The notes beneath the pieces are model-generated. The model saw only the letters and a program-made list of their open reading frames with translations, made no database searches and had not been told where the DNA came from. A stretch of DNA of 34,032 nt from Bacteroidales bacterium UBA2764. GTDB lineage: Bacteria > Bacteroidota > Bacteroidia > Bacteroidales > Paludibacteraceae. The stretch spans positions 14,407 to 48,438 of the forward strand of contig DEIW01000042.1 of NCBI GenBank assembly GCA_002352705.1. The letters are read 5' to 3'. Made by a program: the position numbers and the translations under genes. This document shows, in pieces, positions 5,806-28,433 of this stretch; position 1 is the first letter of the stretch, and each line of letters starts with the position of its first letter.

Positions 5806-5856
5806 TTTTTCGGAAAAAATCGGGAAAGAAAAACAGGTAAAGGGGAGAGGAAAATT

Positions 5857-5912
5857 GAGAATTGAGAATTGAGAATTGAGAATTGAGAATTGAGAATTGA
5901 GAATTGAAAATT
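5857..5912. repeat. GAGAATT heptamer tandem array (7 perfect copies plus 1 degenerate)
   Basis: gagaatt x7 at 5857-5905, then gaaaatt. The array ends 25 nt upstream of the pta ATG. Confidence 0.95.
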
Positions 5913-5936
5913 TAAAAATAACAAATATATAGCATT

Positions 5937-6935: not shown

Positions 6936-6990
6936 TTGAGAATTGAGAATTGAGAATTCAGTCAATTGAGAATTCAGTCAATTGAGAATT
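6936..6990. repeat. GAGAATT heptamer block interrupted by CAGTCAATT units
   Basis: gagaatt x3, cagtcaatt, gagaatt, cagtcaatt, gagaatt. It fills the whole gap between the pta stop codon and the ATG at 6991. Confidence 0.95.
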
Positions 6991-7356: not shown

Positions 7357-7384
7357 GAATTGAGAATTTATTCGATTGAGAATT
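7341..7384. repeat. GAGAATT heptamer block
   Basis: gagaatt gaggatt gagaatt gagaatt tattcgatt gagaatt. It overlaps the stop of the four-helix gene and ends 20 nt before the ackA ATG. Confidence 0.95.
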
Positions 7385-8594: not shown

Positions 8595-8661
8595 TTTACC
8601 ATTTGGTCATTTACAATATGTTCATTTATTTGGACATTTAGTAATTTAGACATTTTACCAT
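8587..8661 (+). repeat. Dispersed 'CATTTAC' element, copy 1
   Basis: tcatttgatttaccatttggtcatttacaatatgttcatttatttggacatttagtaatttagacattttaccat. It overlaps the ackA stop codon. Confidence 0.85.
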
Positions 8662-8683
8662 AGAAAGACACACAACAATAATA

Positions 8684-10324
8684 ATGAACAAACCAATTAT
8701 TTATCAACTCTTCCCGCGTCTGTTCGGAAATTACAATGAGACACGCAAACGTTACGGGACAAAGGAAGAGAATGGTTGCGGGCGGTTTGTCGATATCAAC
8801 GAGCGTGCGCTCAAGTCAATAGCAGATTTGGGCGCTACGCATGTTTGGTATACAGGCGTCATCCGCCATGCAACCGCACAATACAACCACCCTGCCATCA
8901 CTAAAGGAATGGCAGGTTCGCCTTATGCCATCACCGATTATTATGATGTGGACCCCGATCTCGCCAAGAATGAAGCGAAACGCATGCAGGAGTTTGAGGC
9001 GTTGGTGAAACGGACCCATGATGCCGGTCTTGGTGTGCTGATAGATTTCGTGCCGAACCACGTCAGCCGCGAATATAAGAGTCTTTGCAAACCCGCCGGA
9101 GTGGTAGATCTGGGCGAGGGAGACCATCCCGAATGGGCATTCTCTCCGCTCAATAATTTCTATTACATGCCGGGTGAACGTTTTAGCATGGATAAGGATT
9201 TGCAGGGATACGAGGAGTTTCCCGCCAAGGTTACGGGTAACGACTGTTTCACCTCCCATCCGGGCGAGAACGACTGGTACGAGACCGTGAAACTGAACTA
9301 CGGTGTTTTCTATCAGGGCGGAAGAGAGAAACAGTTCGACCCAATCCCCAACACATGGGTGAAGATGCGTGATATCCTGCTCTTCTGGGCTGGTAAAGGC
9401 ATCGAAGGCGTGCGTGTGGATATGGCGGAGATGGTGCCTGTCGAGTTTTTCGCATGGGCTATCAAGGCAGTCCGCCGTAAGTACAAGAAATTCCTTTTCA
9501 TCGGAGAGTGCTATGACCCGAACCAGTATGACGCTTATCTGTCCGCCGGATTTGATTATCTCTACGACAAGGTAGGCATGTACGATTATCTGCGTGGCGT
9601 CACGAGCAAAGGATGGCCGGCAGAGGGCATAACCCACCAATGGATGCAGCACGGTGACGAGCGGATAAAACATATGCTTTATTTTCTTGAGAACCATGAC
9701 GAGCAACGTATCGCCAGCGGTTTCTTCTGCGGCAGCGGTCTATGTGCCGAACCGGCGATGATCGTAGCTGCTACGCTCAACCAGTGTCCTGTGATGATCT
9801 ATTCCGGTCAGGAGTTAGGCGAGCGTGGCATGGATATGGAGGGTTTCTCCGGCATTGACGGCCGGACAAGCATCTTCGATTACTGGGGCGTCAAGAGCCT
9901 CCAGGCATGGGCTAACAAAGGAAAGTTCGACGGCGCGCATCTCAATGAGGCGCAACGCGAGATACGCGCTTTCTACCAGCGTCTGCTGACTCTGGCGCGC
10001 GAAGACAAAGCAATCCAGAAAGGCAAGATGTATGATATCACCTATGCCCAGGGCGAAGGGTTTGACAAACGCCAGCATTTTGCTTTCCTCCGCCATGTAG
10101 CCGGAGAGACATTATTGGTGGTTGTCAATTTCCATGACCGCGAGCAGCAAATCAGTCTGCGGATTCCTAATGATGCCTTTGTCTATCTGGGTCTGGAAGG
10201 CAAAGCCAAAGCCACGGCTACCGACCTGTTAGGGGGCACCAAGATGACGGTAGATTTTACTCCGGACAGTCGCATCAATATCACACTCCATGCCTGGAAA
10301 GGAATGGTGCTCAAAATCAGGTAG
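8684..10324 (+). CDS. Alpha-amylase family (GH13) glycoside hydrolase, apparently cytoplasmic
   Basis: GH13 conserved regions are present: LIDFVPNHVS, GIEGVRVDMAEM, FIGECY, FLENHDEQR. No signal peptide is apparent. Confidence 0.85.
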   Translation: MNKPIIYQLFPRLFGNYNETRKRYGTKEENGCGRFVDINERALKSIADLGATHVWYTGVIRHATAQYNHPAITKGMAGSPYAITDYYDVDPDLAKNEAKRMQEFEALVKRTHDAGLGVLIDFVPNHVSREYKSLCKPAGVVDLGEGDHPEWAFSPLNNFYYMPGERFSMDKDLQGYEEFPAKVTGNDCFTSHPGENDWYETVKLNYGVFYQGGREKQFDPIPNTWVKMRDILLFWAGKGIEGVRVDMAEMVPVEFFAWAIKAVRRKYKKFLFIGECYDPNQYDAYLSAGFDYLYDKVGMYDYLRGVTSKGWPAEGITHQWMQHGDERIKHMLYFLENHDEQRIASGFFCGSGLCAEPAMIVAATLNQCPVMIYSGQELGERGMDMEGFSGIDGRTSIFDYWGVKSLQAWANKGKFDGAHLNEAQREIRAFYQRLLTLAREDKAIQKGKMYDITYAQGEGFDKRQHFAFLRHVAGETLLVVVNFHDREQQISLRIPNDAFVYLGLEGKAKATATDLLGGTKMTVDFTPDSRINITLHAWKGMVLKIR

Positions 10325-10337
10325 TACCTGAGTTTGC

Positions 10338-10394
10338 GTCATTTACCATTTTGTCATTTACTATTTTTTCATTTATTTAGACATTTAGTATTTT
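10338..10394 (+). repeat. Dispersed 'CATTTAC' element, copy 2
   Basis: gtcatttaccattttgtcatttactattttttcatttatttagacatttagtatttt. Confidence 0.85.
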
Positions 10395-10413
10395 GGAAAC
10401 AATTAGAGACATA

Positions 10414-11376: not shown

Positions 11377-12921
11377 TTACTTCAGCGCAATCACTTGTGC
11401 CTGCTGGTTATTCATTCCCGGCATGGTGCGTCCTACGCCCGCGTTGATATAAGTCGGGTCGCATACTACGTATTTGCGGTTCTTGTAGGTCAGATAATCG
11501 CCCCGCTCCTCTTTATTGAAAGCAACGGCGGATGCCAAGTGCCCCGGATAATACAGGAGCACAACGTCCAGTCCTACCAAGTCGCGCACCAGTCTGGAGA
11601 AGAGGATAGCGCGGTCCTCGCAGTCGCAGTAAGGATAATAGAGTGTCTCCTGGGCGAAGAAAGCGCGGTCGTGACCCCATACATCATCATCTACTTTGTA
11701 GGAGAAGGCCGTCTGAACCCAGTTCAACAAAATCTCCACAGCCTGGCGTTCCGTCATGCCGGCGATGGTTTTCTGGAGAGTCGGGTAGAGGGCGTTCTGA
11801 ATGGATTTATCCAACGGAGTGTTGGCGTAAGCTGCCCAACGGGTGCGGTAGTCGCCCTTGTAGCACGCCTGTGGATAGGTATTGAAGAAATCAATCAGGT
11901 TCTTATTCACGCTGACGGATGCCGTAACGCCTTTCTTGGATGTCAGGGTGCGTTTGGGAGTCGGTTCACTGGTGAACTTCGGCAGTTTGGTAATCTGCAT
12001 CGACAGCGATTTCTCTTTGTCGTATTTCGATTCGCAGATATGCATACTGGTGTTCTTGTCGCCGCTTACGATGTAGAATTTTGCGCCGTCGAGGGTGAAA
12101 TATTTGAGTCCGTAGATGTCATACAGACTGGCTACGAGCAGTTGCAGTTTGCCGTTGCCGTTTCCGAGGCGGATCCGGTATCCGGATTGCACGAGCAGGA
12201 AAGCCTGTGCAAGGGTGGCGGTGTTGCCTTTGCCATACTGTTTCTCGCATGCGATGCGTAGCATGTTCAGGTACGCCCAGTCGCAAAGAGCGTTCGCCTT
12301 GCGTGCGTCAAGGGCCGTCTTCACAGTGATGTCATATTTGCTGTCGGACAGAGTCTTCCATCCGTCGGCGATGGCGTTCTCGTCGCTGCCGTTGAGCTTG
12401 AGGTTATCCGTCATCGGGAATCCGATGGTGATGAGTGCGCCGTAATAGGCTATTGACACACGTTTGAAAGGTTCCTCTTTGGGCTGTACGGGCGCGATAG
12501 GTTCGGGCGCCGGGGCCGGAGTAGGAATAACAATCACCTTCGGCTGTACGGCGATGGGGGCTGATTTCTGCTGCAGATCCTCCTGGGGTACAGGGATAGA
12601 GTGGATTTGCTCTTTCTTGATAGGATCCTCTTCTGCGGGCTGAGGCTCCGGGGTAGGGGATTCGTATATTACCGGCGGGATTTCTTTCTCCTTTTTGGGC
12701 TGCTCAGCTTCCTGTGCGGGGAACTCAGCCCATGAGCGGCGCATGAACTCTGCATACTCTTCGTTCACACGGCGTCGGAAGGCGTCAAACTCTGCCTGCC
12801 GATCGTTCTTGAACTGGTTAAACTGGTTTTGTTGCTTTTGTCTAAATTGCTCAAAAGCATCCGTCTGCGCTGCCATCGGCAGAGCCATCAGAACGGAGAA
12901 GAAAAACGCAATTCTTTTCAT
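11377..12921 (-). CDS. Secreted protein with Pro-rich linker and C-terminal transglutaminase-like (Cys-His-Asp) domain
   Basis: Signal peptide MKRIAFFFSVLMALPMAAQ. The linker is rich in P/E/Q. The C-terminal ...YYPYCDCEDRAILFSRLVRDL...LLYYPGHLASAV...VVCDPTY fits a transglutaminase-core triad arrangement. Confidence 0.7.
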   Translation of the reverse strand: MKRIAFFFSVLMALPMAAQTDAFEQFRQKQQNQFNQFKNDRQAEFDAFRRRVNEEYAEFMRRSWAEFPAQEAEQPKKEKEIPPVIYESPTPEPQPAEEDPIKKEQIHSIPVPQEDLQQKSAPIAVQPKVIVIPTPAPAPEPIAPVQPKEEPFKRVSIAYYGALITIGFPMTDNLKLNGSDENAIADGWKTLSDSKYDITVKTALDARKANALCDWAYLNMLRIACEKQYGKGNTATLAQAFLLVQSGYRIRLGNGNGKLQLLVASLYDIYGLKYFTLDGAKFYIVSGDKNTSMHICESKYDKEKSLSMQITKLPKFTSEPTPKRTLTSKKGVTASVSVNKNLIDFFNTYPQACYKGDYRTRWAAYANTPLDKSIQNALYPTLQKTIAGMTERQAVEILLNWVQTAFSYKVDDDVWGHDRAFFAQETLYYPYCDCEDRAILFSRLVRDLVGLDVVLLYYPGHLASAVAFNKEERGDYLTYKNRKYVVCDPTYINAGVGRTMPGMNNQQAQVIALK

Positions 12922-12932: not shown

Positions 12933-13454
12933 TTATTCTTTGACGAAATAGTAGGTGGAACGTTTGTTGGTCTCCGCCATGGAGATATTCAGGCTGTCAA
13001 ACGCTTTGATGGTATAGATATGCGCAATGGGCACATCGCGGAAATCCATCGTCGAGTACTCATACAGGGTGTCGTTCGATTTTGTCCATCGAAACCATCC
13101 GTTGCCGTGAAAACTCAAGTCTTCCTCGAAGACCTCGTCACTCTCGTCCCATTCTTTCCCCCAATAATGGCCTTCGCCGTCATCGTCATCGTAATACACC
13201 TTGTACCAACCGTGGTTGTCCATGTTCTTCCATTTGCCTACCATCAACGGGTCGGCGGGTGGCATTTCGCCTACAAAATAGGTGACGATATTGGTGCTGT
13301 GTTCGTTCTCTATCTCTTCTCCTTCGGGAGACTCTTCATTTTTCTGGACGGGTGGCTCGCCGGTCTCCTCGTTGTGCCTCAACCACAAGGCAGCTCCGAC
13401 GGCAGCCGCTACCATCGCGAGACAGATAAGGAGTGTGATTGTTTGTTTTTTCAT
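12933..13454 (-). CDS. Hypothetical membrane-anchored/secreted acidic protein
   Basis: 173-aa ORF with N-terminal hydrophobic helix MKKQTITLLICLAMVAAAVGAALW. It ends 11 nt upstream of the next gene and has a consensus promoter upstream. Confidence 0.6.
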   Translation of the reverse strand: MKKQTITLLICLAMVAAAVGAALWLRHNEETGEPPVQKNEESPEGEEIENEHSTNIVTYFVGEMPPADPLMVGKWKNMDNHGWYKVYYDDDDGEGHYWGKEWDESDEVFEEDLSFHGNGWFRWTKSNDTLYEYSTMDFRDVPIAHIYTIKAFDSLNISMAETNKRSTYYFVKE

Positions 13455-13476: not shown

Positions 13477-13508
13477 CAAATATACTGCTTTTTTTTTATT
13501 TATGCAAA
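13477..13508 (-). promoter_or_regulatory. Bacteroides-type promoter for the 13454/12921 gene pair
   Basis: On the minus strand, TTTG (reverse complement of 13505-13508), then 20 nt, then TATATTTG (reverse complement of 13477-13484). The -7 box lies 23 nt upstream of the ATG at 13454. Confidence 0.6.
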
Positions 13509-13629: not shown

Positions 13630-14697
13630 TTAGTGTTGTATTTGTTGTTTAATGATTTGCGAGATTTTGGGAGAGATGGTTTTGTATGCATCACGTGCAG
13701 CTTTCTCAAAACTCTGTGTGTGTCCGCCCTTCTCGCTGATTTCGTTCTCGTAAATCCGTTGGCCGGTTGCCGTTTTTTCTACCGCGATATTGGCATCCAC
13801 ATATACGAAATAGGTACTCATACTGCCGAAATCCGCTTTGTTATGTTCCCGAGCCTGCGCAGTAACATAGACCGCCCAGTCTGCTTGGGTAGCGTTGTTC
13901 ACAAACGTGCAACCGAGTTTGGATAACTCGCCTTGAATCTCTGCTTTGAGAGTGGGGTAGTTGGCGGCAAACAACTTGGCATTGCAATTGAGATAGATGT
14001 TTATACCGTTTTTGAGCTCTGCAGCCATGCGGGTATATCGTTGCGTAAACTGTTTGGTCTCCGCCAATTGTAAACTCTCCGCATCCGCAGTCGGGTCAAC
14101 AGCTATCAGAATACGCTGCGCTTGTTCCAACTCTTGGAAAATAGGAACTACTTTCTTAATGCTTTCCCGTGCTTGCATTTTCTGACCTTGGCTAATCATC
14201 TCGTTAACTTGATCCAATGCGGTCTCTATTTTGGTAAGACTAACCGTAATCTTCTTCTCCATCTGCCGGATGAGGGTGGATTTCTTGACGTATGCAAATG
14301 CGGCTATTTCATTGCTGCTGGGGTTCTTCCATGCTTCTACTTGCAGTCCGGGAATCTCCAAATCCACCTTGGTTGTGATACGGCTATCCATGGTCTCGCG
14401 AATACTCTCAGCCCATGCATCCAAAGTTTCCATGCTTTCGGTGTGAGAATGGAGAGTAGTCTCGCTTTGTACGTGCGTGTTGATGGTGCTTAACGCTTCT
14501 ACACGTGCGGCACTTTTCAAGCGCTCCATGGCTTTACCGGTATTCTCTCCATTACGTACTTCTCCTAAAGCAATACCGGTAAAATACGAATCTTTGGGAT
14601 AATTCGTACTCCGCGAAGCGTCATCGTACCAATTGGGTTTTTGTGCTACCGCCGTCAGCGATAATGCAGAGAGCAAAAGGATTAATATTTTTTTCAT
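13630..14697 (-). CDS. Cluster protein I: secreted, N-terminal LPP20/FlgP-like domain, helical middle, C-terminal alpha/beta module
   Basis: The start is taken at MKKILILLLSALSLTAVAQ (ATG at 14697; the track's 14733 adds 12 aa). YFTGIALGE...GKAMERLKSAARVEALSTINTHVQSET fits the LPP20 pattern. Confidence 0.7.
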   Translation of the reverse strand: MKKILILLLSALSLTAVAQKPNWYDDASRSTNYPKDSYFTGIALGEVRNGENTGKAMERLKSAARVEALSTINTHVQSETTLHSHTESMETLDAWAESIRETMDSRITTKVDLEIPGLQVEAWKNPSSNEIAAFAYVKKSTLIRQMEKKITVSLTKIETALDQVNEMISQGQKMQARESIKKVVPIFQELEQAQRILIAVDPTADAESLQLAETKQFTQRYTRMAAELKNGINIYLNCNAKLFAANYPTLKAEIQGELSKLGCTFVNNATQADWAVYVTAQAREHNKADFGSMSTYFVYVDANIAVEKTATGQRIYENEISEKGGHTQSFEKAARDAYKTISPKISQIIKQQIQH

Positions 14698-14784
14698 CTG
14701 ATATATAGTTTTGTTTTTATAAACATTGTCCATTTCTCCGGCATGTCATGCCGGTGTCCACAACCACTATCCTATTGCTTTTAC

Positions 14785-16062
14785 TCACGGGAGGAGTACA
14801 ACGCGGAAGCCAATGAAGTTTCTGCGGCTGCTTGGTGAATCTCCAAGTCGCTCCGACACGCGGCAACAGCATGTAGCTCCAGAATACCAACTGCCACCTC
14901 GATGCACGCGCTCATCGTATGAAGGGTCTATAGGATTATTGACATTATAACAGTTGTCATAGCTATACCAGTCCTTACACCATTCCCTAACATTGCCAGA
15001 CATATCATATATTCCTAATTCATTCATTTTTTTTGTCCCACATTGATGTGCACTATGATTACTATTTTCACGTGTCCAAGCGACTTCATCAGGCAAATTA
15101 CTACCACTATATTTTGTTCGTGTTGATTTATCACCTCCTCGAGCAGCGTACTCCCATTGTGCTTCTGTCGGTAACGTATAAGTCTTTCCCGTTTTATTGC
15201 TTAGTATGCTGCAAAATTCTGTTGCTTCTTCCCAACTGATAAAATACATTGGGTAGTCTACCCCCACCCCATTGGTGTTTTTGTTGTTAGCATCGACAGC
15301 TTTGGACGATTGCTGATAAATAGAAGTACCCATCACTTTCTCCCATTGAGACTGCGTGACTTCCAACATTCCAATATAGAAACCATCCATTTTTACATGA
15401 CACACATTCTTCTCGTTGCTCCAACAATCATCTCCCTGCTCACTCGTGCATCCCATCATAAACTCTCCGCCTTCGACCCAAATCATCTTCATGTTGATGC
15501 CCCATGCATCTTCCGTAAAGTCATAGTTGACAGGTTGGCGTGGGAAAATGCCACTATTCTCTATATGTGACTTAACAAGAGAACCAGATATTTCACCTAG
15601 CATTTCCTTCGCTAATTGACCACATGCTATAGGTAGTGTACTATAATCTTCATTCTTAACATTCACATATTGTGTAGCAGGGTTGGTCATTTGACCAGTC
15701 TCTACATTAACTAAATAAGCCTCGATATATAGTTGTGTTCCATATTTCGTGATAGACGAAATACAAATGTACTGCGCACTTGTCATCACACCGATTTTCT
15801 TACGTTGCGCATCATCCACCATACCTGATTGTTGGAAACCCATCTCATTCAGCATAGCATCTATATCCATACGTGTTAAAACTTGGAAGTTAGATTGCCA
15901 GCCCAATGCTTTACGCAACTCTCCGCGCACCATACTTACTTCCATTGCATTACATGCAGTAGAACCGGGTACTGTCAATGGTTGAAGCAAGGCTATTTGG
16001 GCTTCTTCTGCTATAATAGTCATAGTAAATGCCGAGAGCAATATAATTAATAGTTTTTTCAC
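14785..16062 (-). CDS. Cluster protein H: signal peptide, shared N-module, FGE-sulfatase/SUMF1-fold domain
   Basis: GTG start overlaps the stop of G (GTGA at 16059-16062). N-module ...RMDIDAMLNEMGFQQSGMVDDAQRKKIGVMTSAQYI...LVNVETGQ. C-terminal MIWVEGGEFMMGC...LPTEAQWEYAARGG...YDMSGNVREWCKDWY...RGGSW...GFRVV. Confidence 0.8.
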   Translation of the reverse strand: MKKLLIILLSAFTMTIIAEEAQIALLQPLTVPGSTACNAMEVSMVRGELRKALGWQSNFQVLTRMDIDAMLNEMGFQQSGMVDDAQRKKIGVMTSAQYICISSITKYGTQLYIEAYLVNVETGQMTNPATQYVNVKNEDYSTLPIACGQLAKEMLGEISGSLVKSHIENSGIFPRQPVNYDFTEDAWGINMKMIWVEGGEFMMGCTSEQGDDCWSNEKNVCHVKMDGFYIGMLEVTQSQWEKVMGTSIYQQSSKAVDANNKNTNGVGVDYPMYFISWEEATEFCSILSNKTGKTYTLPTEAQWEYAARGGDKSTRTKYSGSNLPDEVAWTRENSNHSAHQCGTKKMNELGIYDMSGNVREWCKDWYSYDNCYNVNNPIDPSYDERVHRGGSWYSGATCCCRVSERLGDSPSSRRNFIGFRVVLLP

Positions 16063-16424
16063 TGCTGTTTTTCCAATAGTTGTTTTGCAAGAGATTTACA
16101 GACCTTTTGTATTTTCTTCAGCTTCAATTTGCATTGCTCATTGGCATATGCAAACGCAAGGGCAGACTCTACATCCAGGATTTTGCAGGAAATAAAACAG
16201 GAATCTCCTATGGGGCAAACTTCTATAATAAGTATGCATTGTCCACCGGTTTCTACCGGTTCCCACTCCTCCGAATTAACCAGCGCTTCTGTTAGTGAAG
16301 TTTTCAAGACATTAGCAATCGCTGCATCATCGCATTTCGGTTGCTGAATAGTGATTGTTTTCTTCTCTTGCGCTACCATAGCCAGCGAGAGGGCTGAAAG
16401 CAAAAAGATTAATATTTTTTTCAT
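16059..16424 (-). CDS. Cluster protein G: signal peptide plus abbreviated/degenerate N-module only
   Basis: The ATG at 16424 gives MKKILIFLLSALSLAMVAQEKKTITIQQP... It retains the first strand and the ...CKILDVES strand but lacks the FQRTG segment. The track's start at 16433 is a TTG. Confidence 0.6.
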   Translation of the reverse strand: MKKILIFLLSALSLAMVAQEKKTITIQQPKCDDAAIANVLKTSLTEALVNSEEWEPVETGGQCILIIEVCPIGDSCFISCKILDVESALAFAYANEQCKLKLKKIQKVCKSLAKQLLEKQQ

Positions 16425-16444
16425 ATGTTGCAAATATCGATTGT

Positions 16445-17335
16445 TTATTTAACAAGACGGATAGGTCGACCACCTTCACGGAGATTATCATTGATAAATA
16501 TATCCCTCGAACTAAAACCAATACCCCATGCATAAAGTGAACTCTTTGGTGTTGCAGACCAATAGTACCCATTCGTCCCTATACCTTTCACTATGCCATT
16601 GCCATAACGATAACCTGAAGCAGGTAGGAAAATGTATCTCCTACTTGGTCCTGTCACATTATAGCCATCGCCCGTCCATGTCCACTGACAAGAATTTTTC
16701 AATTCTTCCCACTGCTCTTTAGTCGGCAAATTACTTCTAAAAAGAGATATTGCTTGTTCGTATGTAAAGAAATCCCCTTCTTCATTTTCTGTTTTCCATA
16801 AGGTTCTACTTGGGAGACCTAAATCCACATAGTCTGAAGAGATATGGCTTTTAGTCATTGAGGTTTTCGGTGAGGATAAACTAAATAGTGACGCCGCCAT
16901 CTCCCTACATTTATTTTTTACAGATTCCGGTTTGAGTTCCATATAATCATCTACGGACTTATCATATTTGCCTGTTGTGACATTTAGAATCTTAATTATT
17001 GCCGACAAATATCCTTCATATGCACTCACCTCAGATACTAATACATAATCAACACCGGCTAGCTCACCCATCTTCTTAATTTGGGAATCATTTACGGCAC
17101 CGGTTCTTTGAAATGCTTGTTCTTTCTGAATCTGGTCAAAAGCTGAACGGTCATATGCTTCATATTCATTAGACGTTGTTACCGCTGATTCCATAGCTCC
17201 GCGCACCATTTGTCGGAAGAATACATTGACGCTATTGTCCCGACAAATAGGATCAAGCACCGCAACTGTTTTTTTGTTCTGCGCGACCACCGTTAGCGAG
17301 AGTGCCGAGAGCAAAATGATTAATAGTTTTTTCAT
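16445..17335 (-). CDS. Cluster protein F: signal peptide, shared N-module, FISUMP/DUF1566-like C-terminal domain
   Basis: The start is at MKKLLIILLSALSLTVVAQ (ATG at 17335). The track's 17458 would overlap gene E by 110 nt. N-module YEAYDRSAFDQIQKEQAFQRTGAVNDSQIKKMGELAGVDYVL. C-terminal LPTKEQWEELK, IFLPASGYRYG, NGYYWSATP, GRPIRLVK. Confidence 0.75.
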   Translation of the reverse strand: MKKLLIILLSALSLTVVAQNKKTVAVLDPICRDNSVNVFFRQMVRGAMESAVTTSNEYEAYDRSAFDQIQKEQAFQRTGAVNDSQIKKMGELAGVDYVLVSEVSAYEGYLSAIIKILNVTTGKYDKSVDDYMELKPESVKNKCREMAASLFSLSSPKTSMTKSHISSDYVDLGLPSRTLWKTENEEGDFFTYEQAISLFRSNLPTKEQWEELKNSCQWTWTGDGYNVTGPSRRYIFLPASGYRYGNGIVKGIGTNGYYWSATPKSSLYAWGIGFSSRDIFINDNLREGGRPIRLVK

Positions 17336-17348
17336 AATTCGTTCGTTA

Positions 17349-18656
17349 TTAAGGAATGCATACAACACGGAATCCAAGATTTCTATGACGCATGTATGGA
17401 TCATCTGCATCTCGATGGGTGACGCGGCAATTGGACGCGTAAATACCCCAGCCACCACCGCGATTTACACGAAGATCTCCATAGGGGGCACCTGTTGGGT
17501 TGTTAGAATCAGAAACTCGATAAGTATCTTCATACCAGTCTTTACACCACTCACCTACATTACCGGACATGTCATATAAACCAATGGAATTTGGGCGTTT
17601 AGTTCCGCATGGGTGCGTTTCATGATTACTATTGTCTTCATACCACGCAACAGCATCAATGACATTACTACCGGCATATCTGGTTCCATCCGGATTATTT
17701 CCTCCGCGCGCAGCGAATTCCCATTGCGCTTCTGTCGGTAATGTGTATATTTTCCCTGTCTTTTGGGATAGTTTTTGGCAAAATTCCATTGCCTCTTCCC
17801 ATGTGACACAATATATAGGATAATTAGAACCAATCCCTCGACTTGGTTGAGTATTAGGTTGGTAATATTGCAGAATATTATATCTACTATACTCTTGATA
17901 ATTCCATCTATCCCACAATTTATAGATGGTTGTGCCCATTACTTTTTCCCACTGCGATTGTGTTACTTCTATTTCTCCTATATAGAATCCATCTACAAAT
18001 GTGCGGCGCAGAGTTTGTTCATCGTTTGTGCATTCTCCACCTAATTCAGAAGTGCATCCCATCATAAATTCTCCCCCTTCAACCCAAATCATTTTCATGT
18101 TAATATCCCAAGCATCCTCTGTGTATTCATGATTTTTGGATTTGATGTTTGCTTGAGAACGCTGATGAGGGAGAGTTTCAACAGACTTGTCGCCTAATAG
18201 CTCCTTTGCCAGTGCTTGACATGCTGGAAACATATTTGCTAATTTACCATTAGTTAGCTCTCCATACTGAGAAGCGGGACTAAGCATACGTCCGCTTTCG
18301 ACATGTACCAAGTAAGCCTCTATATAGAATTCTGTATTCGATTTTGTGATAGTTGAAACGCAAAGATAGTCCGCACCTGATATTTCTCCCAATTTTTTAA
18401 TTTGCGCTTCATTAACCAAACCTGTCCGTTGGAAATTCTGTTCTTGCATCATCTGATCAATATCTGTGCGTGTGATTGCATCGTAACCAGCAAAGTTAAC
18501 AATGGCCTTGCGTAATTCTCCGCGCACCATATTCTTTTCTAACGTAGTCACAGCTGTTGAACCTTCTCCTATTCGGGAAGGAAGTAAAGCTATGGTTTGC
18601 TGTGCCACTGCCGTCAGCGATAACGCTGAGAGCAAGATAATTAATAGTTTTCTCAT
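17349..18656 (-). CDS. Cluster protein E: signal peptide, shared N-module, FGE-sulfatase/SUMF1-fold domain
   Basis: MRKLLIILLSALSLTAVAQ. N-module YDAITRTDIDQMMQEQNFQRTGLVNEAQIKKLGEISGADYL...LVHVESGR. The C-terminal domain is a close paralog of H (MIWVEGGEFMMGC, LPTEAQWEFAARGG, YDMSGNVGEWCKDWY, GFRVV). Confidence 0.8.
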   Translation of the reverse strand: MRKLLIILLSALSLTAVAQQTIALLPSRIGEGSTAVTTLEKNMVRGELRKAIVNFAGYDAITRTDIDQMMQEQNFQRTGLVNEAQIKKLGEISGADYLCVSTITKSNTEFYIEAYLVHVESGRMLSPASQYGELTNGKLANMFPACQALAKELLGDKSVETLPHQRSQANIKSKNHEYTEDAWDINMKMIWVEGGEFMMGCTSELGGECTNDEQTLRRTFVDGFYIGEIEVTQSQWEKVMGTTIYKLWDRWNYQEYSRYNILQYYQPNTQPSRGIGSNYPIYCVTWEEAMEFCQKLSQKTGKIYTLPTEAQWEFAARGGNNPDGTRYAGSNVIDAVAWYEDNSNHETHPCGTKRPNSIGLYDMSGNVGEWCKDWYEDTYRVSDSNNPTGAPYGDLRVNRGGGWGIYASNCRVTHRDADDPYMRHRNLGFRVVCIP

Positions 18657-18690
18657 TATATGATAGTGTGTCTTGTTTTAAACATAAATG

Positions 18691-20043
18691 TTATTTTTTA
18701 TCAACTATATCTTGAACTAATCGCACATATGCTCTATATCCTATTCTTCTGCCTAATATAGGATGCACGCAAAATGTTTTAAAACCCATTAGACAATCTC
18801 CAATATCATAATCTCGTGCATGATGACTCCAATAATGTCCTACAGAGTATTCGTTCTCATTCTGTATTATTTTATTTGATACAATAAAGTAAGCCGCTGG
18901 AAGAAATATTGCTCCGGATTTTTCCAGTTGCTCCCATTCTCCAATAGTAAAAGCGTTCCGTTTGTAATTTCTTGATGCAGATGAACCCTCATCAATAATA
19001 TAATAACTACCATTTGAAGAATTTTTTAACTCTCTGAATCCCATTTGGGATGCTGTTTTAAATCGTTTTGATCCTTGCAGATTCCAATCATCAGGCAGTA
19101 TAATAAGCCCGTTTACACCATTTATATTGGCTGGAGCAAATAGGTCAAGGGCATTTTTACGATATAAGAACAGATATTCCCATTCATTAGGACAAAGTGT
19201 TCTCCATAAGTTTGGCACATTACCGCCATTAACTATTGGATATTGCCCCCAATCAAAAGCCGGCGAATCCTGTTCTTTTTTGTCGGAGCTATTTTTAGGT
19301 GCCCAGAACAAGAGATCATCCCATTCTCTTGTGGTAGCCATGTAATTTACATAATCGTATTGATGAGCAGCGAAACGTGCCGTATTGTTTGAGGTGTTGT
19401 ATTGTAAATTACCTTGTGAAAAATAAACTCCTTTGTCTTGACCAATAGAAAATGGATGTTTTGAGAATTTCTTATTGATGACATTTTCCGTTGAATAATC
19501 TTCCTTTATTTTGTTTGTATTTGCTTTTGTAGATTGTGTATTACTCTCTAATCGGTCGTTAGGTTTGATATCAAAATTTAACAATTTACTAGCTAAATCA
19601 ATACAGGAAAGTTGGAATATAGTGGGATCCGTTGACACATATTCCGGAACTGTGTTGTTGACTATTTTACTTGTTTCAACATCTATCAACTTCGCTGAAA
19701 GAATGATATTATTCTTATCATTTTTAATTTGTCCAACCTCTGCTACTAATATGTATTGTGTCCCTGTTATTTCTCCTATTTTTCTTATTTGTTGATCCGA
19801 GACGAGACCTGTTCGCTGAAAATTTAGTTCTTCTACTATTAGAGAGATATCTGTCCTATTAAATGCTTCATAGCCTGATGTATTTGATATTGCTGCGGAT
19901 AAATTTTCTCGAAGCATAAACTTCAAGCCATCGTCAACATCGTTGTTTTTATCAATGACATCCAGGATTGCCACTTTCTTAACATCTTGTGCCACTGCCG
20001 TCAGCGATAATACCGAAAGCAAAAGGATTAATAGTTTTTTCAT
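18691..20043 (-). CDS. Cluster protein D: signal peptide, shared N-module, large FISUMP-like C-terminal domain
   Basis: The start is at MKKLLILLLSVLSLTAVAQ (ATG at 20043). N-module VAILDVIDKNN...YEAFNRTDISLIVEELNFQRTGLVSDQQIRKIGEITGTQYIL...LIDVETSK. C-terminal GNLQYN, WRTLCPNEWEYLF, GAIFLPAAYF, VGHYWS, YVRLVQD. Confidence 0.75.
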   Translation of the reverse strand: MKKLLILLLSVLSLTAVAQDVKKVAILDVIDKNNDVDDGLKFMLRENLSAAISNTSGYEAFNRTDISLIVEELNFQRTGLVSDQQIRKIGEITGTQYILVAEVGQIKNDKNNIILSAKLIDVETSKIVNNTVPEYVSTDPTIFQLSCIDLASKLLNFDIKPNDRLESNTQSTKANTNKIKEDYSTENVINKKFSKHPFSIGQDKGVYFSQGNLQYNTSNNTARFAAHQYDYVNYMATTREWDDLLFWAPKNSSDKKEQDSPAFDWGQYPIVNGGNVPNLWRTLCPNEWEYLFLYRKNALDLFAPANINGVNGLIILPDDWNLQGSKRFKTASQMGFRELKNSSNGSYYIIDEGSSASRNYKRNAFTIGEWEQLEKSGAIFLPAAYFIVSNKIIQNENEYSVGHYWSHHARDYDIGDCLMGFKTFCVHPILGRRIGYRAYVRLVQDIVDKK

Positions 20044-20112
20044 ACTCTTCTTTATAATAAATAGTGCAACCGAGGGAGGTATCAGCCCCCTCGGCGCGAA
20101 AGTATAAAACAA

Positions 20113-20898
20113 TTATAACTCTTGGAAATGATTTTTGAAATCCTTGTGGAACTCCTCAAAGCTTTCTTCTATCTTAGTTTGATTGTTTTTCTGTAAAGTA
20201 TCATAAGCTGCTTTCAGTATACGCTCAGCACTCGCCTCAATACTGATATATGTCTTCATCATACGAACACCATTTTGAGTGTAGGTCATAGTCTTACGGC
20301 AAGCTATATTATAGCTAATGGTCTGCTTAACAGATATCTCAATCTCTTGCTTTGTCTGACTGGCAAAATTATTAGCTTCATTCTGATCCCAACTTTGATT
20401 CTGCAATCGCAGCAATGACTCCACTTTAGAGGATATTTGAGAAGCAAGATCGTTGATAGCATAAGCCTTGGCTTTTTCAATAGAGAATTGTTGATTGCGA
20501 TCCACCCCGATGCCATGACCACGAATTAAATCCTCTGTGCTTGGATAATCAGATTCAGAGCACGGTTCTTCTACTGCTTTCTCTTCAAGAGCAGCAGCTT
20601 CCTCTGCTCTTTTCTGACGCGCTTTTGCTTCTGCTTCTTCTGCGCGACGCTCTGCTTCATAACGCTCTACAGCGGCTTTACGTGCCTCTTCTTCTTCCGC
20701 AGCGCGTTTCTGGACATTTGCTAAACTGTCCATCTTCATTTTGTGACGGAGTTGAGCCTCCTCGCGTTGCATCTGTTGCTCCATTTCCCAGTTAGCCTTT
20801 TTCGCTGCTTTTTTGTCTTTGCGGCTTTGGGCATTTGCCGGAGCTGCAACTAATGCCAGTGCCATTGCGGCTACTGCTACTAACTTGATAGTTTTCAT
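20113..20898 (-). CDS. Cluster protein C: signal peptide, Lys/Glu/Ala coiled coil, LPP20/FlgP-like C-terminal domain
   Basis: MKTIKLVAVAAMALALVAAPANAQ. The charged repeat region reads EEEARKAAVERYEAERRAEEAEAKARQKRAEEAAALEEK. LIRGHGIGVD...IEKAKAYAINDLASQISSKVES fits the LPP20 pattern. Confidence 0.7.
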   Translation of the reverse strand: MKTIKLVAVAAMALALVAAPANAQSRKDKKAAKKANWEMEQQMQREEAQLRHKMKMDSLANVQKRAAEEEEARKAAVERYEAERRAEEAEAKARQKRAEEAAALEEKAVEEPCSESDYPSTEDLIRGHGIGVDRNQQFSIEKAKAYAINDLASQISSKVESLLRLQNQSWDQNEANNFASQTKQEIEISVKQTISYNIACRKTMTYTQNGVRMMKTYISIEASAERILKAAYDTLQKNNQTKIEESFEEFHKDFKNHFQEL

Positions 20899-20928
20899 TG
20901 TTGTAGTGATTTTAGTTAATATTATTAG

Positions 20929-22185
20929 TTAGAAATTTAATGCCAATCCTAATGATTGAGGACCTGCTTTTATATCAAGAGATAACGGCTGTATATCAGG
21001 TGACGAGCATCTCTGATTATACACCTTATAAGCTTTATTGCGCTTGCTGTAACCGGTTCCTAAAAGAGGAATAGATACCAATGTCATAGCTCCACCGGCC
21101 GACAAGAGGCTGATACCTATTATCATGAATTTAGTTTCAGGAACGTCGGTATAAGTTAAATCTAAAGTAGAATATGGATTTACAGCATCCGCTATTATCA
21201 TACAAGCGGCACCTCCGGCAGAAAGCGCTAAACCAGTAGCGAATAACCCCCATCCTGCTCCAATCAATTTTTTGCCTTTCTTGTATTGAGAGAATGCAGC
21301 AGGACAGTTGGTTTGTAAGAAATTAGCATACGCTTTTTTATCCATAAATGTTCCGCGGTATTCGTACTCTTTATTACTAATCTTTGTGATATAGTATTTG
21401 GCGCGTTCCGCCTCTGCGGCTTCGGCTTCTGCTTTCTCTTGCTGTTTCTTTGCTAATGCAGCTTTTTCCGCAGCCTCCCGCTCTTGGCGGTTTTTTTCGT
21501 TGGCTAACCGTCTTTCTTCTTGTGCCTTGCGCTGAGCTTCTGCGCGCTCTTGGCGGAAACGTTGTTCATCCAAACGGCGTTGTTCTTTGGCTGCGGCAGC
21601 AGCTGCTGCCATTTCTGCTTCTTGAGCGGCTGCGATGGAATCCTCCTTTGTCATGGTCTCTCGTTTCCCACCTGTGAAGATGCTAAGGAATTTGCTTGTA
21701 GAAGTAGAAGCACCTGCCAAGGCTCCGAACATCTTGCTAGCCAAACTGCGGCAACCGCGCTGCATTGCGGCAGAGGACGACCCTAACAATATATTGTCCG
21801 TTATTTCCAATCGGGTGGTCTCTACATTAAGAATTTTTGCCGTGACGAATAGTTTGTCGTCTTCTGCTTCTGCTGCTTCAGATACCAGAATGTACTCTGC
21901 ACCCGTCATCTCACCTAATTTCTTGATCTCAGAAGAACTGACATTTCCTGTACGTTGGAAATTGTGCTCCTTGAAAATTTCATCAATATCCGTACGGTCA
22001 TATGCCTCAAAACCGGCGGTGTTGGTGACGGCACGTGCCAGATTGCTACGTAGCATCAGTTTTTGACTATAGTTCAGTTTGCCCTCTTTGTCAACCACTT
22101 CAAGGATGGCTACTTTCTTAGCTCCTTCTGCAAATACTAATGCAGTAAGAAGCAATAATGAAAATAAGATAGAAAATCTTCTCAT
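20929..22185 (-). CDS. Cluster protein B: signal peptide, shared N-module, Glu/Ala/Arg/Lys coiled coil, two C-terminal hydrophobic helices
   Basis: VAILEVVDKEGKLNYSQKLMLRSNLARAVTNTAGFEAYDRTDIDEIFKEHNFQRTGNVSSSEIKKLGEMTGAEYIL...ILNVETT. Hydrophobic segments LIGAGWGLFATGLALSAGGAACMIIADAV and FMIIGISLLSAGGAMTLVSIPLLGTG. Confidence 0.8.
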   Translation of the reverse strand: MRRFSILFSLLLLTALVFAEGAKKVAILEVVDKEGKLNYSQKLMLRSNLARAVTNTAGFEAYDRTDIDEIFKEHNFQRTGNVSSSEIKKLGEMTGAEYILVSEAAEAEDDKLFVTAKILNVETTRLEITDNILLGSSSAAMQRGCRSLASKMFGALAGASTSTSKFLSIFTGGKRETMTKEDSIAAAQEAEMAAAAAAAKEQRRLDEQRFRQERAEAQRKAQEERRLANEKNRQEREAAEKAALAKKQQEKAEAEAAEAERAKYYITKISNKEYEYRGTFMDKKAYANFLQTNCPAAFSQYKKGKKLIGAGWGLFATGLALSAGGAACMIIADAVNPYSTLDLTYTDVPETKFMIIGISLLSAGGAMTLVSIPLLGTGYSKRNKAYKVYNQRCSSPDIQPLSLDIKAGPQSLGLALNF

Positions 22186-22192
22186 AATTGTA

Positions 22193-22729
22193 TTATTTTT
22201 TATTTTTTGTTTTGAATAAATCTAAGAATTTGTTGGTTGAAGTGGATGCTCCGGCAGACGCACCGAACATCTTACTGGCTAAATTGCGGCAACCGCGTTG
22301 CATGGCTGCTGCGGACATTCCAATCAAAGCATTGTCCGTGCGATCCATTTTTGTGGTCTCTACATTAAGAATTTTTGCCGTCACAAATATCTTGTTATCT
22401 TCAGCAACAGCGCCTTCAACTACAAGGATGTATGCCGCACCGGTCATTTCTCCGAGTTTCTTGATGTCTTGAGCACTAACATTTCCTGTACGTTGGAAAT
22501 TATGCTCTTTGAAAATCTCATCAATGTCCGATCTGTCAAAAGCCTCATAACCTTCCGTGTTGGTAATCGCGCGCGCAAGATTACTGCGTAGCATCAGTTT
22601 TTGACTGTAGGTTAATTTGTCCTCTCTGTCAACCACTTCAAGGATGGCTACTTTCTGAATCTCATTTTGAGCATAAGAAATAATACTCAATGTCGCCAAA
22701 AGGCATAAAAGGAATATTCGTTTCATCAT
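22193..22729 (-). CDS. Cluster protein A: signal peptide plus shared N-module only (truncated tandem duplicate of B)
   Basis: The start is at MMKRIFLLCLLATLSIISYAQ (ATG at 22729, or 22726). The sequence is near-collinear with the first ~175 aa of B, then ends ...STSTNKFLDLFKTKNKK*. Confidence 0.75.
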   Translation of the reverse strand: MMKRIFLLCLLATLSIISYAQNEIQKVAILEVVDREDKLTYSQKLMLRSNLARAITNTEGYEAFDRSDIDEIFKEHNFQRTGNVSAQDIKKLGEMTGAAYILVVEGAVAEDNKIFVTAKILNVETTKMDRTDNALIGMSAAAMQRGCRNLASKMFGASAGASTSTNKFLDLFKTKNKK

Positions 22730-22960
22730 ATAGTTTATAGTATAAATTTTGCATTGGCATATACGCCTTCTCACTTATGGATTTTCGGCGTACTCCGAAT
22801 ATATTCTGTCATTATTTAAATAATCACATACATTCGTGCATATACATACGAAAAAGCGCAGACTTCGCTATTGCTCATCTACGCACAAGGGTCTTAGCAC
22901 TTACCCCACCAGTCAAATAAACAACAATGAAACCTACGCCGATATGACAAACCCCAAAGA

Positions 22961-22988
22961 ATGTACAAGGTACAATGTACGATGTACG
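22961..22988. repeat. ATGTACR heptamer tandem repeat (4 units) in the cluster leader
   Basis: atgtaca aggtaca atgtacg atgtacg. Confidence 0.8.
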
Positions 22989-23228
22989 AAGGGCTGATAA
23001 ATGTCATACCCGTAGGCATCTACCGTTACTTTGCTTTTGACTAGTGTTGAATTTGAAAAAGTGTGCTAAGCTTTTTGTGCGTCAAATACAAAGCGTCAAT
23101 AAACGCCATTCAATATGTAATGAATCCCCTCTAACCCTCCTGCTCAGGGCAGGCCGGCGTAGATAGAATCCTTTTGGATGGACACCTTATTTATACGCAC
23201 GCATTGCGTAAAGTGCCCATTTCGGCGA

Positions 23229-23260
23229 CAAAGGTACTATAAATTTTTGAATTGAGCAAA
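23229..23260 (-). promoter_or_regulatory. Bacteroides-type promoter pointing into the nine-gene cluster (leader ~450-500 nt)
   Basis: On the minus strand, TTTG (reverse complement of 23257-23260), then 20 nt, then TACCTTTG (reverse complement of 23229-23236). I found no other consensus promoter between here and 13630 on the minus strand. Confidence 0.6.
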
Positions 23261-23300
23261 TAAATTTTTTATTTTGTGTATAATTTTTCGTTTTTTATTA

Positions 23301-23356: not shown

Positions 23357-23437
23357 GGGACTGCTTGGCTACGCGTAAAGAAAAATTAATGATAAGTGCA
23401 TTTTTCCATAAAATAATTTCCATAAAGCGGAAAAATA

Positions 23438-23469
23438 TTTGCACGTTTCAAAAAAATGTAGTATCTTTG
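23438..23469 (+). promoter_or_regulatory. Bacteroides-type promoter of the ATPase gene
   Basis: TTTG at 23438-23441, then 20 nt, then TATCTTTG at 23462-23469. The ATG at 23496 lies 27 nt downstream. Confidence 0.65.
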
Positions 23470-23495
23470 CAGCGATTTTAAATTTTAGAGGTCTT

Positions 23496-24623
23496 ATGGA
23501 TACCAGTATTATTAATCCTTTTATTACTACCGGCTACGCAGGTGCTGCATACTTTTGTGACCGTGAACAGGAGACTGCAGATCTTACGCGTTTGGTAGTT
23601 AATGGGAATAATGTGGCACTTATTTCACCACGCCGTTACGGAAAAACGAACCTCATTCGCCATTGCTTTGCACAGCAGGAAATAGCTGACAACTATTACA
23701 CATTCATTATCGACATTTACTCTACTAAGTCAGTACAGGATTTGGTTCATCGTTTAGGATTATCCATCCTTGAGGCACTCAAACCCAAGGGCAGGAAGGC
23801 GTGGGAGAAGTTCATCTCCGTATTGGCATCCGTGCGACCGGGCATCACGTATGATGCCGGAGGAAACCCATCATGGACGCTCAGCATTGGGGATATAGCC
23901 ACGCCTACCACTACTTTGGAAGAGATATTTTCCTATCTGGAGCACGCCGATAAGCCGTGCATAGTAGCCATTGACGAGTTCCAGCAGATAACCCATTATA
24001 ACGACGATTTGATTGAAGCAACTATGCGGACCTATGTGCAATACTGCACCAACACCCATTTCATTTTCTCCGGTTCGCAACGGCATTTGATGGGGCAGAT
24101 GTTTACCTCGCCGGCTCGACCGTTTTATCAGAGTGTAACACTGTACAACTTACCCTTGTTACCGGAGGATAAATACACGGATTTTTGCCTGCGGTTGTTT
24201 GAGCAAAGAGGAAGGATATTGTCTCAAGATGTACCGCACGCCCTTTACGAGCGTTTTGAGGGTATTACCTACTACATGCAGCGCGTGATGAATGAATTGT
24301 TTACGCGCACACCGGTTGGCGGATCATGCACTGTGGCAGATATAGAGTCGGCTATCCGGTATATCATCCTTATTTCTTCGAATACTTACGAAGACTTGAT
24401 GTATCAGTTGCCGGAAAAACAATCGCTAGTTCTACGTGCAATCGCTCAGGAAGGAAAGGCTCGGAATCTGACATCCGGCAAATTCATCAAGCGGCACGGT
24501 CTGTTGTCTGCCAGTTCCGTTAAGTCTGCTGTGCCTGCATTGTTAGACAAAGGGCTTGTTACCAGTGAGTTGGGCATCTATCAAGTCTATGATAAATTTT
24601 TAGAGTTGTGGTTAACTACATAG
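23496..24623 (+). CDS. AAA-type ATP-binding protein (Arch_ATPase-like N-domain plus DUF234-like winged-helix C-terminus)
   Basis: The start is at MDTSIINPF (ATG at 23496, just downstream of the promoter; the track's 23439 lies inside the promoter). Walker A is ISPRRYGKTNL and Walker B is CIVAIDEFQQI. The C-terminal LSASSVKSAVPALLDKGLV is wHTH-like. Confidence 0.8.
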   Translation: MDTSIINPFITTGYAGAAYFCDREQETADLTRLVVNGNNVALISPRRYGKTNLIRHCFAQQEIADNYYTFIIDIYSTKSVQDLVHRLGLSILEALKPKGRKAWEKFISVLASVRPGITYDAGGNPSWTLSIGDIATPTTTLEEIFSYLEHADKPCIVAIDEFQQITHYNDDLIEATMRTYVQYCTNTHFIFSGSQRHLMGQMFTSPARPFYQSVTLYNLPLLPEDKYTDFCLRLFEQRGRILSQDVPHALYERFEGITYYMQRVMNELFTRTPVGGSCTVADIESAIRYIILISSNTYEDLMYQLPEKQSLVLRAIAQEGKARNLTSGKFIKRHGLLSASSVKSAVPALLDKGLVTSELGIYQVYDKFLELWLTT

Positions 24624-28278: not shown

Positions 28279-28327
28279 GTCATTTACCATTTGGTCATTT
28301 ACCATTTAATCATTTATTTGGTCATTG
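28279..28327 (+). repeat. Dispersed 'CATTTAC' element, copy 4
   Basis: gtcatttaccatttg gtcatttaccattta atcatttatttg gtcattg. Confidence 0.85.
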
Positions 28328-28433
28328 AGCTATTTGTGGATTTGCCATACGACCATTTCTTTTTCTTTTTTAACCACTCAGCCTTTTTCTTCTCGTATTC
28401 GGCGTAGTGGGATTCCAAATATCCGTCAGCCAT
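28314..28433 (-). CDS. Possible small basic protein (39 aa), below the ORF-track threshold
   Basis: ATG at 28433: MADGYLESHYAEYEKKKAEWLKKKKKWSYGKSTNSSMTK*. The N-terminal half resembles small conserved Bacteroides proteins as I remember them (unverified). The C-terminal codons run into the repeat. Confidence 0.35.
   Translation of the reverse strand: MADGYLESHYAEYEKKKAEWLKKKKKWSYGKSTNSSMTK

Follow-up and report, generated by a model that had tools for sequence, protein, structure and literature searches.

A window of 34,032 nucleotides (nt) from Bacteroidales bacterium UBA2764 (Paludibacteraceae), which lives in the gut or rumen (contig DEIW01000042.1, positions 14,407 to 48,438), carries on its minus strand a cluster of nine genes, A to I (13630-22729 of the window), all of which encode proteins with a signal peptide. 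Seven of the proteins share an N-terminal module (N-module), to which different C-terminal domains (heads) are joined in D, E, F, and H. The other two, C and I, have predicted Lpp20-like folds, and their genes bracket N-module genes in related loci. We tentatively propose, at somewhat less than an even chance, that the cluster encodes a periplasmic, non-lipidated multi-protein scaffold carrying swappable ligand-binding heads. In sister loci, one head type is diversified by a diversity-generating retroelement (DGR), and the cluster is preceded by a conserved structured leader RNA.

Organization of the nine-gene cluster

The nine open reading frames (ORFs) are separated, from A to I, by 7, 30, 69, 34, 13, 20, -4, and 84 nt. 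A preliminary description, made from the letters of the sequence, had reported a minus-strand cluster of nine ORFs, and this is borne out by the ORF calls and the spacing. The largest gap had been given as 87 nt; on recomputation it is 84 nt. The reported GTGA overlap at 16059-16062 is real, since the GTG start codon of H overlaps the TGA stop codon of G.

All nine genes lie on the minus strand. Gene A (22193-22729) encodes 178 amino acids, called as 177 from the second Met, with a signal peptide and the N-module only. In B (20929-22185), the N-module is followed by a charged helix of about 90 residues, two transmembrane (TM)-like segments, and a C-terminal tail. C (20113-20898) consists of a signal peptide, a single helix of 80 residues, and a predicted Lpp20-like domain with a conserved Cys pair. 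D (18691-20043) joins the N-module to a head of about 260 residues whose family is uncertain, E (17349-18656) to an FGE-sulfatase (C-type-lectin-like) head that we call non-catalytic, and F (16445-17335) to a small Lcl_C/DUF1566-like head. G (16059-16424) is a degenerate, headless N-module from which the FQRTG core is deleted. H (14785-16062), which starts with GTG, again has the N-module and an FGE-sulfatase head. The terminal gene I (13630-14700) encodes a protein whose N-domain is predicted to be Lpp20-like; a helical bundle comes next, and the C-domain is LptE/DUF4136-like.

A signal peptide had been claimed for every ORF, and all nine products indeed begin with an n-region rich in K/R, behind which come a hydrophobic stretch and an A-Q or A-E site. 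The lipobox Cys is absent from all nine, and the signal peptides are of the signal-peptidase-I (SPI) type. The same type was found in related loci for 71 of 76 N-module proteins, 35 of 38 I proteins, and 32 of 34 C proteins; only one N-module protein and two weak C-like matches were lipoprotein-like. The classing into SPI-type and lipoprotein-type is heuristic in all of these counts. Among the operon products, no match to the C-terminal domain of the type IX secretion system (T9SS) was detected, and the operon contains no beta-barrel gene. B had been regarded as the sole membrane-anchored member. This agrees with our analysis, in which only B has further TM-like segments (residues 314-332 and 354-372). 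Residues 176-270 of B consist to 79% of E, K, R, A, and Q.

Upstream, an ATPase_2 gene (23439-24623) was considered as a part of the system and rejected, because no homologue occurs in any related locus. With PADLOC, none of the nine proteins was matched; only this divergent upstream ATPase was matched, weakly, to PDC-S27.

The N-module and its relation to CsgG, LpoB, and FlgO

Directly behind the signal peptide, a stretch of about 130 residues can be aligned among A, B, D, E, F, and H (26-70% identity to A), and the motifs FQRTG, IKKxGE, and ILNVET are present in the aligned N-modules. A is 70% identical to the N-module of B. Apart from this pair, the identity between paralogues is 26-45%, and it is 60-77% in the DNA repeats. 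Thus, the alignment supports the seven-member paralogy that had been described, with G as a degenerate copy without the FQRTG core. No Pfam match was obtained for G. Short G-like copies also occur in the related loci L012 and L020.

Pfam CsgG (PF03783; cut-off, 20.8 bits) matched H (30.3 bits), F (27.0), A (21.5), and E (20.8), and the scores of B, D, and G were below the cut-off. The match is confined to profile positions 31-104, approximately, of 210, which is about a third of the profile. Since the coverage is partial and the module has only about 130 residues, the channel part of CsgG (the transmembrane beta-hairpins) is missing. The profiles of LpoB, FlgO, GNA1162, and FlgT_M gave sub-threshold matches on the same segment. 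For LpoB, the scores were 14-20.7 bits with PF13036 (cut-off, 22.3; D, 19.4) and 16-21 bits with TIGR02722 (cut-off, 110.55), and a 360-residue relative in L023 attains 26.1 bits. For FlgO (PF17680; cut-off, 22.6), E scored 15.3 bits, and a relative in L017 scored 26.4 bits.

These results place the N-module in the CsgG/LpoB/FlgO-type alpha/beta superfamily, as had been proposed, since A, E, F, and H reach or exceed the gathering score of CsgG. Membership in the CsgG, LpoB, or FlgO families proper did not stand, because there is no lipobox, about one third of the profile is covered, and most matches are sub-threshold. No Pfam matches for the curli partner genes csgA, csgB, csgE, or csgF were obtained anywhere in the window. 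Bacteroidales are non-flagellate, and no flagellar genes were found in the window.

A single gene of this family was seen in L003-L006 (10001-10876), outside any C...I locus. It encodes a 291-residue protein with the N-module and a B-type TM tail, and is followed by a gene for a protein of 174-182 residues of unknown nature and then by a response regulator gene.

The C-terminal heads

FGE-sulfatase heads had been recognized in H and E, and PF03781 (cut-off, 23.3 bits) matched both, with 169.5 bits for E (1.4e-49) and 162.4 bits for H (2.1e-47). The best solved relative of these heads is Treponema denticola TvpA (2Y3C; 1.5e-27), the variable protein of a DGR. The catalytic cysteines were aligned residue by residue for E of the two proteins. 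In E, an Ile is aligned with the catalytic Cys336 of human FGE, and only the equivalent of Cys341 is kept, as in TvpA. Since TvpA is the closest solved relative and E lacks the Cys336 equivalent, the FGE heads look, from their sequences, like binding domains rather than enzymes. This agrees with the structural or binding role that had been assigned to them. The analogy to PorK/GldK of the T9SS found no support (TIGR03525, 88 bits; cut-off, 350 bits).

FISUMP/DUF1566-like heads had been suggested for D and F. For F, the suggestion is weakly supported by sub-threshold matches to Lcl_C and Fib_succ_major (E about 0.014; 16 bits against cut-offs of 34-35 bits); 4 of 14 F homologues match Lcl_C, the best at 1e-5. 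For D, the only match was a weak one to F by BLASTP (E, 0.004). An orthologue of D is present in L017. We propose that most of the heads are C-type-lectin-like binding domains, either of the FGE or of the DUF1566/Lcl_C type.

C and I, a pair with predicted Lpp20-like folds

C and I had been described as LPP20-type proteins. In Pfam, neither gave an LPP20 match (PF02169) at E<=0.1, and this part of the claim failed. The fold predictions are in favor of it for C and for the N-domain of I. The AlphaFold (AF2) model of C (pLDDT, 81) has an 80-residue helix followed by a beta-alpha-alpha-beta-beta-alpha domain. Foldseek matched this model to HP1454 (3.2e-3) and to Lpp20 (5ok8; 3.9e-3, probability of 1.0, TMt of 0.50-0.54); Tip-alpha was also matched, to 1e-2. 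C113 and C200 are invariant in C.

The model of I (pLDDT, 82) consists of three parts, the Lpp20-like N-domain, the helical bundle, and the C-domain. Its Foldseek matches, at 1e-5 to 1e-3, were HpaA, Cj1090c, HP1454, GNA1162, CsgG, LptE, FlgT, the LPHT ring, and PelC. HP1454 was aligned at 1.2e-4 over 320 columns, and FlgT likewise over more than 320 columns. The C-domain matches the structures of LptE, GNA1162, CsgG, PelC, and HpaA. Distant relatives of I gave sub-threshold matches to LPP20 (20.5 and 14.5 bits; cut-off, 25.9) and to DUF4136. The LPP20-like assignment of the pair thus comes from predicted-structure matches together with these sub-threshold scores. Between C and I, no significant similarity was detected by BLASTP or hhalign. 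I is the best-conserved component, with about 355 residues and at least 54% identity among the 120 matches listed, and clustering at 50% identity gave 830 clusters for the I family (E<=1e-3).

The gene order C, N-module genes, I recurs in related loci

Homologues of A, C, and I were found in metagenome-assembled genomes (MAGs) of Paludibacteraceae or of uncultured Bacteroidales from rumen and gut. In about 38 distinct related loci, ORFs were called and scanned with hidden Markov models built from the window. The architecture of C, one to six N-module genes, and I recurs in these loci, all of which belong to Paludibacteraceae-like MAGs. C lies upstream of I in 31 of the 31 loci with enough upstream sequence, and 30 of these 31 have N-module genes (1-6 copies) between the two. 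In most loci, I is the last gene at the 3' end, but L007, L041, and L045 have additional N-module genes behind it. In some MAGs, two or three loci of this kind are present.

The head types vary by locus and include FGE, F-type (Lcl_C-like), D-type, Sel1/TPR, OmpH, and double N-module forms, the last with a FlgO match that exceeds the cut-off. For a MORN-like class of heads, only precomputed weak or faint matches were obtained. The C...N...I order recurs, and the heads are swapped between loci. In a close relative, whose A is 88% identical, the syntenic chromosomal site holds only A-C-x-I. This shows that the content of the locus turns over quickly. The GC content in the operon interior (window positions 15001-20000) is 0.35-0.42 versus 0.47-0.55 in the housekeeping flanks. 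In combination with the fast-changing gene set of the locus among close relatives (L048), the low GC content is consistent with genes being exchanged or replaced frequently.

Four related loci (L012, L024, L031, and L041) have a radical-SAM/SPASM gene and a DUF4760 gene among the N-module genes (for example, L024 6009-7331 and 7556-8311). A radical-SAM maturase beside FGE-fold proteins is a curious arrangement.

Diversity-generating retroelements in sister loci

In eight loci (L018, L019, L021, L022, L023, L036, L043, and L044), a gene with the N-module and an FGE head (N+FGE) is followed by an HRDC gene (about 156 amino acids) and a reverse transcriptase (RT) gene (about 337 amino acids). A complete HRDC-type DGR lies between the N+FGE gene and I, and in L023 and L044 a Kinase-PolyVal gene follows the RT gene. 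The template repeat (TR) was compared with the variable repeat (VR) in four loci (L018, L019, L022, and L043). In these, a repeat of 133-147 nt is present both at the 3' end of the N+FGE gene and just past the RT gene. In L022, for example, the order is VR (7999-8132), HRDC gene (8239-8709), RT gene (8706-9719), and TR (9697-9830). Of the mismatches, 16 of 17, 18 of 20, 15 of 15, and 13 of 14 were at positions where the RT-proximal copy has an adenine, and most of these belonged to AAC codons. Since adenine-specific mismatches between TR and VR are the signature of a DGR, the FGE head is a ligand-binding surface that can be diversified.

At their 3' ends, E and H can be aligned with the variable repeats of the sister loci, from which they differ at the same codon positions. 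AAC templates would be expected to give NNC-type codons at these positions, but the codons of E and H are not of this type, and an insertion of 3 nt is present in H. Therefore, E and H are homologues of DGR targets without a sign of recent mutagenic homing. A remote DGR may be present elsewhere in the genome of this organism.

FGE-class targets with N-terminal 'extensions of unknown function' were noted in the DGR survey of Wu et al. (PMC5758913). Periplasmic DGR variable proteins are known in Bacteroides, namely BovT and BfiT (bioRxiv 10.1101/2024.11.15.621889).

Promoter and leader RNA

The Bacteroidetes-type promoter pattern TTTG-N17-23-TAnnTTTG occurs eight times in the window, compared with an expectation of 0.94. 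Between 13.4 and 23.3 kb, the minus strand has only two occurrences, one upstream of A (23229-23260; TTTG-N20-TAnnTTTG) and one at 13477-13508, and none lies inside the operon. This agrees with the single promoter that had been placed at 23229-23260. The promoter pattern fits the transcription of A to I as one unit, without proving it. An invertible promoter was also considered. It is unlikely, because the sole long inverted repeat (23229-23267 and 23431-23469) consists of two divergent promoter consensus sequences.

The interval 22730-23260 is more than a spacer, because a conserved structured leader RNA of about 300 nt is located there (22851-23172, minus strand), between the promoter and A. 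It is more conserved than the coding genes. By nhmmer, the leader was found 5' of the first gene in 19 distinct related loci; copies lie at L049 9662-9963, L014 5759-6062, and L011 5975-6263. No Rfam family matches it. RNAalifold predicted 44 pairs from an 18-sequence alignment, 20 of them with compensatory changes. When a long-range helix was added, 94.5% of cells were paired, compared with 31-47% in slid controls. In 22 pairs, both sides change, compared with a shuffle mean of 12.5, and none of 500 shuffles reached the observed values. At the 3' end of the leader, a terminator-like helix followed by a U-tract (84% paired; covariation not beyond that of the shuffles) might compete with helix 3. 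Such competition is plausible. The leader is a well-supported candidate for a new class of structured cis-regulatory RNA.

A metagenome scan with a 19-nt core of the leader gave at least 120 loci (L050-L169), and the whole element was present in 112 of the 120 listed. Among the 72 listed copies with enough downstream sequence, only 7 precede C or N-module genes. Therefore, the leader is not specific to the C...I system. The other operons that it heads encode BspA-type leucine-rich repeat (LRR), MBG_2, Big_2, Listeria-Bacteroides-repeat, and PEGA proteins, and some copies lie upstream of restriction-modification (DNA methylase), HEPN, or Gp49 genes. Among the loci listed, 50 of 74 first genes behind the leader encode a signal-peptide- or TM-like N-terminus. 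The leader is a general 5' element of accessory operons, a set to which this locus belongs, and it occurs widely in metagenomes from rumen and gut.

Proposed model and alternative explanations

We propose that the assembly would be built from non-lipidated relatives of the Lpp20/FlgP and the CsgG/LpoB/FlgO scaffold folds. C, with its long helix and Lpp20-like domain, and I, which is HP1454-like and has three domains, may form the invariant periplasmic core. The N-module of about 130 residues would be a common docking or oligomerization module that joins the interchangeable heads to the C/I core. B may anchor the assembly to the inner membrane through its charged helical spacer of about 90 residues and a TM hairpin; the 80-residue helix of C is similar to the charged helix of B. 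The heads would bind variable ligands, and in the sister loci the side of the FGE head that binds the ligand would be rewritten by the DGR. Transcription of the entire operon would run from one promoter through the structured leader of about 300 nt, which it shares with other accessory operons. As precedents, Lpp20 (HP1456) and HP1454 of Helicobacter pylori interact with FlgP and FapH, which form disks and rings, and among the FlgP homologues there are some that are SPI substrates without lipidation (PMC11756786).

Several observations weigh against this scaffold model. The fold matches of C are weak (E of 3e-3 to 4e-3, TM of about 0.5). Neither sequence and profile searches with C and I nor a search with the N-module profile gave a match among PDB sequences. 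N-module proteins are also found as singletons outside C...I loci, and one locus (L016) has C and I and no recognizable N-module gene. The window contains no RT gene, no HRDC gene, and no template repeat of the 3' ends of E and H. Targets of DGRs are exposed at the surface more often than they are located in the periplasm.

The last point bears on a different placement of the heads. The N-module, C, and I might form or use a route across the outer membrane, and the heads would then be variable adhesins displayed outside the cell, as TvpA or LdtA. We regard this surface display as unlikely. It would agree with the usual role of DGR-diversified bacterial proteins as surface ligand binders (PMC5758913; PMC8144416), with the leader being common to the genes of BspA-LRR, Big_2, MBG_2, and other surface proteins, and with the fold relatives of I (CsgG, PelC, and LptE) that act at outer-membrane export pores. 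However, the proteins have no lipobox or other lipoprotein export signal and no T9SS C-terminal domain, the operon has no beta-barrel gene, and the N-module, which covers only positions 31-104 of the 210 in CsgG, is without the channel-forming part. If the heads stay in the periplasm, they could instead form a neutralization array, that is, pre-made antibody-like binders of incoming toxins that act in the periplasm (bacteriocins or effectors of the type VI secretion system) or of phage parts, with new specificities given by the DGR. The predicted location, the tandem swappable heads with their rapid turnover between relatives, the DGRs embedded in eight loci, and the copies of the leader 5' of restriction-modification, HEPN, and Gp49-type genes are compatible with such an array. 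We nevertheless consider it quite improbable, since PADLOC matched none of the nine proteins, the window shows no linked toxin or phage gene, and what the ligand would be is speculation.

The proteins may also not assemble at all. They would then be an expanded family of independent secreted binding proteins that have the N-domain by descent, with C and I as unrelated neighbors. The occurrence of N-module proteins alone elsewhere and the age of the paralogues (26-45% identity apart from A and B) speak for this. However, C and I bracket N-module genes in essentially every locus, though I is only 46-70% identical, and the spacing is operon-like with a single promoter pattern; we therefore give this explanation little credence. 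An enzymatic pathway or a known machine, such as sulfatase maturation by FGE, the CsgG channel of curli, the LpoB activator of a penicillin-binding protein (PBP), or PorK/GldK of the T9SS, is suggested by the names of the Pfam and NCBIfam matches (FGE-sulfatase, CsgG, LpoB, and GldK). It is highly improbable: of the two catalytic cysteines, one is missing from E, which is most similar to TvpA, a protein that is not an enzyme; the operon contains no sulfatase, curli, PBP, or T9SS genes, none of its products is a lipoprotein, and the scores are far from the cut-offs (GldK, 88 versus 350 bits; LpoB TIGR02722, 16-21 versus 110 bits).

A more far-reaching form of the scaffold model is that the locus represents an unrecognized class of envelope system, namely a DGR-reprogrammable periplasmic scaffold array of interchangeable C-type-lectin heads, which would give the cell envelope an antibody-like layer for recognition, under a new leader RNA that would also control many accessory operons of gut Bacteroidales. 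We regard this as doubtful. The preliminary description knew of no system with this composition, and the literature that we searched likewise gave no characterized system of this gene set and no published description of these components combined. The folds themselves are known; what is new is the composition, the lack of lipidation, the non-flagellar context, the swapping of heads, the embedded DGRs, and the leader RNA.

Comparison with known systems

One close parallel is the Lpp20 operon of H. pylori (HP1456, HP1454, and HP1457) together with FlgP, FlgO, FlgT, and FapH, in which small periplasmic alpha/beta scaffold folds are also encoded together. The model of C resembles Lpp20/HP1454, the model of I resembles HP1454, FlgT, and the LPHT ring, and the N-module resembles the FlgO and FlgT_M profiles. 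The H. pylori Lpp20 and Flg proteins interact with one another and build disks or rings beneath the outer membrane (PMC11756786). In contrast to that set, our system has no flagellar genes, no lipidation, and a multi-copy, variable gene set, and its scaffold module carries heads of the lectin-like, Sel1, and OmpH types, with sequence matches at or below the thresholds.

In the DGR class with FGE-sulfatase/CLec targets (TvpA; HRDC-type 'architecture C'), TvpA is closest to the heads of E and H, and the sister N+FGE genes have the same arrangement of a 3' variable repeat, then HRDC, RT, and the template repeat. The window differs in lacking these last three elements, and TvpA differs in being a lipoprotein and in having no N-module. 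In the literature searched, we found no DGR target described as bearing a CsgG/LpoB-like module at its N-terminus. The outer-membrane lipoproteins CsgG, LpoB, GNA1162, LptE, and PelC share the alpha/beta core fold and the envelope location with our proteins, but the latter have no lipid anchor and no CsgG transmembrane hairpins, and no curli, Lpt, Pel, or PBP1B partner genes are present here. BovT and BfiT provide a Bacteroidales precedent for DGR-diversified proteins that stay periplasmic (bioRxiv 10.1101/2024.11.15.621889). They differ in being kin to the tip adhesins of type V pili, and have neither a CsgG/LpoB-like module nor Lpp20-like brackets.

Flagellar disks and outer-membrane lipoprotein machines are the main settings in which the Lpp20/FlgP and FlgO/CsgG-type folds have been described. 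If the scaffold model is true, these bacteria have reused the folds as a general platform on which ligand-binding domains are mounted. A cellular context is also provided by the locus for DGR targets with N-terminal extensions of 'unknown function', and with a defined context, target recognition by periplasmic or envelope DGR proteins can be addressed by experiments. The leader RNA, in turn, is tied to many accessory operons.

Other features of the window and of related loci

Downstream of I, two further minus-strand genes are possible accessory genes and have the promoter pattern at 13477-13508 (Bacteroidetes-type, minus strand) 5' of them. J (12933-13454) encodes a TM protein, and K (11377-12921) a secreted protein of 514 amino acids. 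K, usually with J, is found after I in eight related loci, in four of them directly after I. No Pfam or PDB match was obtained for J or K. By eye, the C-terminus of K shows a Cys...His...Asp pattern (CDCED, PGH, and CDPT) that recalls transglutaminase-like proteases.

Directly upstream of the related locus in L049 (1-9393), a Tubulin_2 gene, a gene for 996 amino acids, and a 1246-amino-acid FGE-sulfatase/DUF553 gene were found, which may be a separate system.

Two types of short repeats were observed elsewhere in the window. Arrays of the heptamer AATTGAG at 5829-5935, 6917-6990, and 7327-7384 flank pta, ackA, and a gene of the 23S-rRNA-IVP family (6982-7356). A 57-nt intergenic repeat (ATTTACCATTTGGTCATTTAC...) occurs in four copies (8594-8650, 10341-10397, 27550-27606, and 28282-28338), with 70-88% identity to the reference copy.

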